DNA of 64,000 nucleotides from a virus (taxonomy: Duplodnaviria > Caudoviricetes): positions 36,633-100,632 of the IMG/VR virus record IMGVR_UViG_3300031867_000022; one strand, given 5' to 3'. The translations under genes and the position numbers were made by a program. Shown here in pieces: positions 3,193-25,984 of the stretch. Position 1 is the first letter of the stretch; every line of letters starts with the position of its first letter. The notes below the pieces were generated by a model. The model ran no database searches and was not told where the DNA came from. It worked only from the letters and a program-made list of their open reading frames with translations.

Positions 3193-3267
3193 TGGTCGCC
3201 CCACCATCGAGTCGAACCCGGACCTGGAGGGTTAGAGCCTCCCGTGCTACCGCTACACCATGGAGCA
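3193..3267 (-). tRNA. Amber suppressor tRNA (anticodon CUA), Gln-like body
   Basis: TGCTCCA-TG-GTGT-AGCGGTA-GCAC-G-GGAGG-CTCTAAC-CCTCC-AGGT-CCGGG-TTCGACT-CGATGG-TGGGGCG-A-CCA. U1 start, encoded CCA, anticodon at 3235-3233, irregular T-stem. Confidence 0.9.
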
Positions 3268-12003: not shown

Positions 12004-12064
12004 AATACTGTCGGGATGTAGATGTCCCCTGATGAGTCGTTGCAAATTACGACGAAACAGTATT
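12004..12064 (+). ncRNA. Type III hammerhead ribozyme
   Basis: Stem III AATACTG/CAGTATT, GUC triplet (cleavage after 12012), stem I GGGAT/GTCCC, core CTGATGA, stem II GTCGT/ACGAC, core GAAA. Confidence 0.9.
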
Positions 12065-16998: not shown

Positions 16999-17175
16999 AT
17001 GAAGTACGAAAATTCTATGCATCGATTCTTTCAAGTTAGTAGCGGAGTTTCCCTTATTATAGCAGGTATAAGTATGCTAAAAGGCAATATGCAAGGTGCA
17101 ACATTTGGTGTGCTTTTGGCCATACACTTAAACATGCTATCTTGGAATTATGAAGATTACGATGAGGAAGAATAA
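16999..17175 (+). CDS. Small membrane protein (58 aa)
   Basis: MKYENSMHRFFQVSSGVSLIIAGISML...YDEEE-TAA. Confidence 0.5.
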   Translation: MKYENSMHRFFQVSSGVSLIIAGISMLKGNMQGATFGVLLAIHLNMLSWNYEDYDEEE

Positions 17176-17177
17176 GA

Positions 17178-17390
17178 AATCTTAGCGTGTCCCAGGATAA
17201 GTCGTTCGGACGGCGGTTCGATTCCGCCCAGGTCCACCTATATTAATAAATATGGGCTTGACTGGTTTAGACGGCGACAGAAAGTAAGACATCAAGCGCT
17301 TTGATATAAAAATTAAACGGCAACATAAACGTTGTTGACTACACGGGTCTCCAGGAGGCAGCGTGAAGTCGGTGAACCCTACCTAAGTGG
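17178..17390 (+). ncRNA. ssrA: Circularly permuted (two-piece) tmRNA; outer ends approximate
   Basis: The 3' acceptor part comes first (GGAC-GGCGG-TTCGATT-CCGCC-CAGGTCC-A-CC, 17208-17238), then an AT spacer, then the 5' part GGGCTTG-ACTGGTTTAGAC at 17254. Pairing gives G3-U70; P2 is GGCGAC/GTCGTT; tag ORF 17319-17366 reads GNINVVDYTGLQEAA-TGA. Confidence 0.88.
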
Positions 17391-17393
17391 GGA

Positions 17394-17450
17394 GAGTGAG
17401 TAGCGTTAATTCGCCCAGGTACAGGTGGGTTCGAATCCCACACTCACTCC
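17394..17450 (+). ncRNA. Anticodon-less tRNA-like element
   Basis: GAGTGAGT/ACTCACTC stem stacked on GTGGG-TTCGAAT-CCCAC T-arm; small GCG/CGC arm. Confidence 0.6.
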
Positions 17451-17539
17451 TACGTCGTGAGACGCATTAGACTGTCTTAAAGGATAGTCTCTTTCGTGAA
17501 TGGTAGGTGCAGGTGAAGTATAGTAGCCTGCACCGTAAT

Positions 17540-17708
17540 GGATCAATAGCTCAGTTGGTAGAGCAATAGAGATAAGCAAAAGATAGAGCTGTCACGGCTA
17601 CATGGCTGATATAAACCGTGTAAAAAATGTGTAAAATTGATTTGTTTCAAACTATCATGGTGATTTGTTTATCTTTATAAGTCCCCGGTTCGAGCCCGAG
17701 TTGGTCCA
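17540..17708 (+). ncRNA. tRNA-like RNA with ~113-nt extended anticodon domain
   Basis: Acceptor GGATCAA/TTGGTCC, D-arm GCTC-AGTTGGTA-GAGC, T-arm CCCGG-TTCGAGC-CCGAG. The anticodon stem is replaced by a 15-bp helix ATAGAGATAAGCAAA/TTTGTTTATCTTTAT enclosing more structure. Confidence 0.75.
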
Positions 17709-17722
17709 CAAACACATATCGA

Positions 17723-18214
17723 ATGAAAAAATCTGGATACAAGGAAATGTTGCGGGATAGATGTCCTGCAACAGTAAACTTTGCTCTTAAGTATTGCAAT
17801 GCTAAAGAGCGTTGGATTGATCATGCTTACAATCAATTTATAAAGATATATGTAGATAATAATGAACGTAAACATACTACTCGTATTATCCTCGGTATTG
17901 CAAAATATTACAGAAACTTTATATTTGATAAAAGCATCGATTGGGAGAATCTCACCAAAGAAGAAGAAGCCTATTGGAAATGGGTATCAGCTTGGGTGAG
18001 GTGGTTCATGAAGAACTTTGCGTATATAGAAAATACGTATAAGATCTCTCGCTCTTGTGGAAAAGATGAATTTGACTGTAAAGTTGAAATCATCCAGAAG
18101 CACTTAAGTTCAAAGCTTCCTACAGAAGACGATGATGAAGAAACAAAAGCAAAAAAGCTAAAAGAAGTAAATAAACTTACCGATTATCTCGTCAAATGTA
18201 TCAATGAAGTATAG
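17723..18214 (+). CDS. Hypothetical protein
   Basis: 163-aa ORF. Confidence 0.8.
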   Translation: MKKSGYKEMLRDRCPATVNFALKYCNAKERWIDHAYNQFIKIYVDNNERKHTTRIILGIAKYYRNFIFDKSIDWENLTKEEEAYWKWVSAWVRWFMKNFAYIENTYKISRSCGKDEFDCKVEIIQKHLSSKLPTEDDDEETKAKKLKEVNKLTDYLVKCINEV

Positions 18215-25939: not shown

Positions 25940-25984
25940 AGGTTAGTTCGCATGGGATATGGGGTTCGAATCCTCTCTAACCTA
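25940..25984 (+). ncRNA. Anticodon-less tRNA-like element
   Basis: AGGTTAG/CTAACCT stem, GGGG-TTCGAAT-CCTC T-arm, then A-CAA. Confidence 0.55.

Follow-up and report, generated by a model that had tools for sequence, protein, structure and literature searches.

The DNA analysed here (the window, a stretch of 64,000 nt) belongs to a complete virus of 100.6 kb with direct terminal repeats that, judging from its sequence, is a crAss-like phage of the rumen. The closest tmRNAs to its own found by BLAST among GenBank phages are those of the uncultured crAss-like phages cr272_1 and cr273_1, and its relatives were found in rumen and gut assemblies. The locus described below (Table 1) starts with a phage tmRNA, followed by a first tRNA-like element, a stretch of hairpins, a second tRNA-like element (17540-17708, referred to from here on as the element) and a conserved protein-coding gene. 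We call the place that the element occupies in this order the slot. Relatives are designated by L numbers, followed where needed by their own coordinates.

Table 1. Features of the tmRNA locus and of the element at 17540-17708, in window coordinates.
Feature	Position	Strand	Pairing or support
Two-piece (permuted) tmRNA, tag end ...DYTGLQEAA	17187-17366	+	Rfam RF04321, 71.1 bits; ARAGORN
First tRNA-like element: acceptor and T arm with a variable middle, directly 3' of the tmRNA tag region	17395-17449	+	
Stretch of about 87 nt with three conserved hairpins, between the two tRNA-like elements	17453-17539	+	
Acceptor stem, 5' strand; the preceding base (17539) is T	17540-17546	+	7/7 pairs with 17701-17707
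D arm: 4-bp stem (4/4), 8-nt loop with G18 G19	17549-17564	+	
15-bp arm, 5' strand; first 5 nt in the anticodon-stem position, next 10 the start of the insert	17566-17580	+	two G.U pairs
Cargo replacing the 7-nt anticodon loop, 103 nt	17571-17673	+	
5-bp helix above the long arm, 5' strand	17582-17586	+	pairs with 17652-17656
15-bp arm, 3' strand	17664-17678	+	pairs with 17566-17580
Variable loop, 5 nt, last base C48	17679-17683	+	
T arm: 5-bp stem with one C.A mismatch (4/5), canonical T loop	17684-17700	+	
Acceptor stem, 3' strand, and discriminator A	17701-17708	+	
Spacer of 14 nt up to the start codon of the conserved gene	17709-17722	+	
Conserved 163-aa gene 3' of the element	17723-18214	+	

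The neighbours of the element within this locus show some variation of their own. The first tRNA-like element keeps the same acceptor stem and T arm throughout the relatives, while its middle ranges, depending on the relative, from a short insert up to a full cloverleaf (L138:79-149, L151:902-984 and L162:584-655) and is only 58-70% identical where the phage flanks are 92-97% identical. In four relatives (L126, L129, L098 and L137) a real tRNA-Met is found instead of this first element, directly after the tag hairpin. In another relative, an aberrant 81-nt tRNA-like gene with an irregular anticodon region (L154:9456-9536; 48.9 bits with the Rfam tRNA model) separates the hairpin stretch from the first tRNA-like element. 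The hairpin stretch itself is a candidate small RNA, putatively freed by RNase P and RNase Z. Its last hairpin (17506-17534) is identical in the close relatives and shows two compensatory stem pairs in L287, L289 and L290.

Other RNA features were detected at a distance from the locus. A predicted type III hammerhead ribozyme at 12005-12063 scores just above the Rfam threshold (49.8 bits versus 48.5), and a syntenic-looking copy appears in a relative (L154:3105-3163, 47.4 bits). The minus strand at 3193-3267 codes for a suppressor tRNA with anticodon CTA, labelled 'Pyl' by ARAGORN, and TAG is apparently recoded in this phage, the ENA gene calls of the relatives requiring TAG=Q. Beyond the window, on the minus strand of the same genome (G000:C1:30457-30532), there is a 76-nt element with a fully paired acceptor (7/7) and T stem (5/5) that received no call from ARAGORN and that ends 4 nt ahead of an ORF start.

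The Rfam tRNA model (RF00005) spans the element end to end on the plus strand, with 37.8 bits and an E value of 2.8e-6 in a search of 801 nt; the gathering score of this model is 29 bits. The element was missed by ARAGORN in default mode and by Rfam scans of 36-64 kb. The acceptor stem contains one G.U pair, the anticodon-stem position is completely paired (5/5, one G.U) and the elbow nucleotides of a tRNA are retained. A sequence-only reading of this DNA had described the acceptor and D arms as intact and the T arm as near-canonical, and the RF00005 match together with the count of pairs stem by stem confirms it. CCA is not encoded at the 3' end, where the trailer begins CAAA. In the RF00005 alignment 103 nt stand in place of the 7-nt anticodon loop, and the usual combination of a 5-bp anticodon stem and, at its end, a 7-nt loop containing U33 and the anticodon is absent from the element. 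What lies in the slot is a real element, framed by a cloverleaf and devoid of an anticodon loop.

In the fold of the cargo, a three-way junction carries hairpins (17593-17621, 17637-17650). The 15-bp arm, the 5-bp helix and the two or three inner hairpins appear both in the free fold (-45.1 kcal/mol, z = -2.84 versus shuffled sequences) and in the fold constrained to a cloverleaf (-41.7 kcal/mol, 3.4 above the minimum), so that the earlier description of an anticodon stem extended to 15 bp with G-U pairs, and of a further helix of 5 bp next to it, is correct. The inner hairpin with an 18-nt loop that was part of the same description (17593-17620) does exist, but it competes with a shifted pairing (17600-17621). 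There is also a direct repeat inside the cargo (17598-17610 and 17652-17664), and RNAalifold, applied to two form A alleles (see below), paired the 5' strand of the arm with the first copy of this repeat. This is a possible alternative conformer that we have not counted as evidence. The cargo also contains a 10-codon mini-ORF (17602-17634, ending ...KNV), probably meaningless, and promoter and terminator signals inside the element are no more than those of shuffled sequence.

The cargo is present as a single copy, with just chance 9-12-mers elsewhere in the genome, which rules out a multi-copy mobile element. No Rfam family matched the cargo at E<=10, exact patterns of the junction and of its best-conserved block had no match in IMG/VR or in GTDB genomes, and BLAST against GenBank phages returned the tmRNA as its sole match, without any relative of the insert. 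As a post hoc observation, the motif GTGTAAA appears twice in the cargo of the window (17618-17635) and once in the hairpin loop of a different cargo (form C, L151:1081-1185); genome-wide it occurs 20 times in 201 kb, both strands counted.

Relatives were collected via the protein of the downstream conserved gene and via the tmRNA tag, and those whose neighbour protein was at least 90% identical were treated as close. Among these close relatives the slot contains either a tRNA-Met(CAU), of type 1 or type 2, or one of three long forms, A, B and C. Form A is carried by the window and by L149 and L150, two contigs of 77 kb and 104 kb from independent ENA assemblies of different studies, at 93% identity (12 differences in 170 nt); L149 scores 48.5 bits with the Rfam tRNA model. 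Since two independent ENA assemblies have the same form, the insert is not an artefact of assembly, nor is it unique to this one, uniqueness being among the outcomes that the sequence-only reading had named as speaking against it. Form B (L138 and L291) is an otherwise unchanged tRNA-Met in which the whole anticodon arm has been replaced by an arm of 80-82 nt. Form C (L151, L152, L162, L163 and L292) is a 105-nt element with a G3.U70 pair. The tRNA model recognizes these forms too (48.0 bits for L138, 44.7 for L151 and 36.8 for L162). Altogether, cargo alleles were found in 10 of the approximately 37 contigs sampled. The three cargoes have no similarity to one another, to the HNH cassettes described below or to any other sequence fetched.

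Presence and absence of the insert between near-identical phages was seen directly. In L165, flanks that are 97-100% identical to those of the window enclose an ordinary 74-nt tRNA-Met, and one identical protein (P0122) is accompanied, across contigs, by four different states of the slot (tRNA-Met type 1, tRNA-Met type 2, form B and form C). None of 20 more distant relatives has a long form; their slot either lacks a tRNA or holds one or two ordinary ones (Met-CAU, Gln, Arg, Ile, Ser). Regarding form C (L151:1081-1185, L162:752-856, L292:257-361), the G3.U70 pair plus the discriminator A make up the alanine identity set, and this form is a predicted alanine acceptor without anticodon, encoded beside the tmRNA. 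In one of its carriers form C is directly followed by a 27-nt direct repeat (L162:857-910), and then by an extra ORF of 109 aa before the conserved gene.

A way to ask what is kept at the slot is to compare the pairs among alleles. All forms retain the acceptor (6-7 of 7 pairs), the D stem and the T arm, and the cloverleaf with a long arm is the minimum free energy fold in five of the seven cargo alleles. Form A has persisted over approximately 7% divergence with unchanged acceptor and D stems. Its T-stem pair 51-63 is C-G in the window and U-A in L149, pair 30-40 changes from G.U to G-C and one G.U of the arm becomes A-U, while two pairs of the 15-bp arm become A.C in L149. Among the form B alleles two T-stem pairs covary, one G.U of the arm becomes A-U, and in L291 the base of the arm is rebuilt from different pairs. 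The form A acceptor is also fully paired in spite of changes at four pair positions relative to tRNA-Met (4-69, 5-68, 6-67 and 7-66); the tRNA-Met alleles have U.U at 6-67. These structure-preserving changes provide modest evidence pointing to selection on a tRNA-like fold, the covariation being thin, with two distinct form A alleles only, and recombination between this and other tRNA alleles, instead of compensatory mutation, could explain the differences in the T stem. As for the cargo, its sequence is 95% identical among form A alleles while the flanks are 93-99% identical. The idea that the cargo is better conserved than its flanks is therefore unsupported, and the data give no sign of selection on the cargo sequence of form A.

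On balance, we favour the explanation that the element is a non-decoding, tRNA-shaped RNA, kept as a processing mark for RNase P and RNase Z and as a stable carrier. The element would be one of several interchangeable alleles in a fixed tRNA slot, with a scaffold descending from the tRNA-Met(CAU) family that ordinarily fills it. RNase P and RNase Z need only the stack of acceptor and T arm, and not the anticodon arm. Co-transcribed with the tmRNA cluster and the downstream gene, the element would be cut by the host RNase P at 17539/17540 and by RNase Z after A17708. These cuts would free the upstream hairpin RNA, leave the downstream mRNA with a leader of about 14 nt and liberate a stable, roughly 169-nt RNA to which CCA would be added. 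This RNA is probably not aminoacylated, because the CAU loop is required by MetRS as well as by TilS/IleRS. As for the cargo, it may simply be carried along, or it may act in trans and rely on the tRNA body to be processed and stabilised, like the cargo of an engineered tRNA scaffold.

Several features of the locus bear on this explanation. Against it count the C.A mismatch in the T stem of the window allele, the two A.C pairs in the arm of L149 and the HNH cassettes described below, which would fit a past of selfish insertions. In its favour, N73 and the start codon of the conserved gene lie 14-17 nt apart in 12 of 14 relatives, irrespective of whether the slot is filled by a real tRNA or by one of the forms A, B and C, or whether the upstream minihelix stands alone. 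The A-CAAA trailer is common to the tRNA-Glu, the element and a minihelix at 25940-25984. The simplest reading of such a constant requirement at the slot is a processing mark, and the anticodon arm would therefore be free to be replaced. The complete genome is devoid of any tRNA(CAU), so that decoding by the slot is dispensable. The 'natural tRNA-scaffolded RNA' proposed from the sequence at the outset is thus the option that we prefer, with a scaffold that is intact in every allele, cargoes that are unrelated and no anticodon loop. More tentatively, the long arms might be exchangeable modules, serving for instance as small regulators or as decoys against host defence or RNA-binding factors, mounted on a tRNA chassis that guarantees their trimming and stability.

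More distant relatives provide a glimpse of how the alleles might turn over. There, a cassette composed of an endonuclease gene and a nested replacement tRNA interrupts the resident tRNA in its anticodon arm. The split genes are a tRNA-Gln in L156-L159 (L156:287-1190) and a tRNA-Met in L161 (L161:1-743). The ORFs of the cassettes code for HNH-like endonucleases of 205 and 157 aa, below the Pfam cut-offs but with a recognisable motif. The two ends of each cassette base-pair and lengthen the anticodon stem; excision would not bring the loop back. Homing endonucleases are known in phage tRNA clusters (segB of T4; hegA, hegC and hegD of T5), and because of this endonuclease-driven gene conversion is a plausible motor of cassette exchange.

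The same process also keeps alive the idea that the element is nothing but a dead tRNA gene, in which the insert is the scar left by the invasion of a tRNA-Met gene by a mobile element or homing endonuclease and has no function of its own. The helix would then derive from terminal inverted repeats, and the scaffold would be intact only because the event was recent. We consider this unlikely, although the HNH cassettes that split tRNA-Gln and tRNA-Met at the very same arm, with ends that pair, are what such an invasion would look like, and the presence/absence polymorphism at the slot, the loss of tRNA(CAU) that the phage tolerates, a cargo as conserved as its flanks and the two A.C mismatches in the arm of L149 would all agree with it. 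A tRNA-Met with an insert is, however, not what form A looks like, given that it departs from tRNA-Met in the acceptor, the D loop and the T arm and yet stays fully paired there. Three unrelated cargoes are all found on intact scaffolds and form continuous helices with G.U pairs, which speak against an origin from inverted repeats because in DNA repeats they would be mismatches. The persistence of form A through its approximately 7% divergence, with acceptor and D stems unchanged, does not fit a recent event either. Furthermore, the genome of the window has no HNH gene, and the insert is a single copy with no relative in the same genome, in IMG/VR, in GTDB genomes or among GenBank phages.

Much less probable is that the element is an intron-containing tRNA, from which the insert is removed and the halves ligated to yield either Lys-UUU, the product called by ARAGORN, or Met/Ile2-CAU. 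The intron mode of ARAGORN does give a tRNA-Lys(ttt) with a 94-nt intron at 34/35, but the same model gives Asp(atc) for the sister allele L149, Ser or Pro for the two form B alleles and Thr, suppressor or Ser for three alleles of form C. As the anticodon differs between alleles of one form, these calls are fitting artefacts; at tandem tRNA loci the intron mode gave chimeric false calls, which were excluded from the evidence. The Lys model also requires a shifted or 6-bp anticodon stem, and no CAU triplet is found in the context of a 7-nt loop. Group I introns have a conserved catalytic core (P3-P9) and are usually 200 nt or more. The insert has 103 nt, in agreement with the initial judgement that it was too short for a group I intron, and the Intron_gpI model matched neither 17100-17900 (E<=10) nor any of seven related loci (E<=1). 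The helix is continuous and without a bulge-helix-bulge motif. Polymorphic tRNA 'introns' have been reported in the Lak megaphages of Prevotella (PMC6784885) and an RtcB is present in the Bacteroides control genome, but EndA (PF01974), RtcB and an Rnl-type ligase were all missing from the complete phage genome. The allele-specific anticodons, together with the lack of a group I match, of a bulge-helix-bulge and of these phage enzymes, make splicing unlikely, and the 'unusual spliced tRNA' also suggested at the start loses its appeal, since removal of the insert rebuilds no anticodon that is consistent among alleles.

A second tmRNA-like rescue RNA, with a charged tRNA-like domain and 17602-17634 as its short frame, is extremely improbable: the 'tmRNA-like architecture' of the sequence-only reading holds as a loose picture, with a tRNA-like body, a large internal payload with a mini-ORF and a phage tmRNA encoded next door, but pair 3-70 is A-U and not G.U, the putative tag end is not of the Ala-Ala type known from tmRNA frames, no tmRNA family matched across 17540-17708 at E<=10, and the D arm is intact, which is not a tmRNA feature. 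A pattern made from the tRNA-like domain of tmRNA was too generic and retrieved unrelated phages.

The non-decoding, tRNA-shaped carrier that we favour has counterparts in well-known phages. RNA1 (T5s03, 144 nt) and RNA2 (T5s06, 125 nt) of phage T5 (NC_005859) are annotated as 'tRNA-like stable RNA with unknown functions'. Both have an acceptor stem, a D-like arm and a T arm, with a long folded arm at the position of the anticodon arm, and they are encoded among phage tRNA and small-RNA genes beside HNH endonuclease genes. They differ in that the body of RNA1 is of class II (Leu-like) and in that T5 has a different host and belongs to a different phage family; besides, the T5 RNAs are annotated as stable RNAs while the element is known here from its sequence alone. 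The species 1 RNA of T4 (rnaC), small and stable, is encoded near segB, where the tRNA cluster of T4 ends; it has a canonical T arm and paired ends, without a clear D arm in its fold, and rnaD of T4 is not tRNA-like by its minimum free energy fold. The design also has an engineered equivalent, the tRNA scaffold of Ponchon and Dardel from 2007, in which the anticodon stem-loop of a Met or Lys tRNA was reportedly replaced by a cargo on an extended stem, the cellular tRNA enzymes being said to trim and stabilise the cargo RNA. The design is identical, but that one is man-made and the element is natural and polymorphic.

Two further systems are worth comparing. The Lak megaphages have polymorphic 'enigmatic introns' in their tRNA genes, without an Rfam class and in one case with a nested tRNA (Devoto et al., 2019, PMC6784885). 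Like the phage studied here they are gut phages of Bacteroidota with TAG recoding, closely related genomes differ in whether their tRNA genes carry the additional sequence, and their nested-tRNA arrangement is the same as in L156 and L161. Unlike the cargoes at our slot, for which no consistent anticodon can be restored, the Lak inserts were modelled as introns whose removal gives back a specified anticodon, and these phages belong to another family, ours being crAss-like. The second comparison is with the t-elements of plant mitochondria and the tRNA-punctuation model (Forner et al., 2007, PMC1920247). These t-elements are non-decoding tRNA-like folds at mRNA ends, with RNase P and RNase Z as the presumed nucleases. 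They share with the element a fixed position at a boundary, here the 14-17 nt to the start codon, but they are found in an organelle and not in a phage, and have no cargo arm.

The occurrence of similar genes was explored by scanning IMG/VR with a pattern in which a single common D-arm sequence precedes a T loop by 45-75 nt. This gave at least 111 candidates, and among the matches listed 87 of 111 had an acceptor of 6-7 out of 7 pairs and a T stem of 4-5 out of 5, versus approximately 0.1% expected by chance, with inserts of 20-50 extra nt. Recurrent classes of insert appear among the matches listed, some of which are giant-virus tRNAs with introns of the eukaryote type. One recurrent class consists of a hairpin followed by a conserved ACAGCAA (L169:6304-6877 and many other loci, among them L254, L265, L188, L267 and L255); L169 carries four genes of this class in tandem, on different tRNA bodies, for which Rfam reports only tRNA. 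A second class has a conserved block containing CAUGG (L264, L274, L280 and L226). Our literature search found no paper describing the class as such; apart from the Lak paper, it yielded only a preprint of 2026 about bacterial tRNA mimics of an unrelated kind.

Taken together, the element is a natural and polymorphic relative of a known but barely characterised kind of phage RNA. Genes of this kind are overlooked by standard annotation, and the pattern scan suggests that phage contigs often contain them. The slot behind the tmRNA amounts to a natural experiment, in which nearly the same genome carries either a working tRNA or one of three look-alikes that have a cargo and no anticodon. Whether tRNA shapes direct the cuts of host RNase P and RNase Z in phage transcripts, and whether the cargo arms act on the host, could both be tested at this locus. 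If the long arms really were exchangeable modules, the slot would be an arms-race locus where co-infecting phages swap cargoes, perhaps with the help of breaks made by homing endonucleases, and a natural modular system of RNA delivery would be common to many phages. In any case, the locus bears on two puzzles of phage biology, the 'stable RNAs of unknown function' of T5 and T4 and the 'enigmatic introns' of the Lak megaphages.
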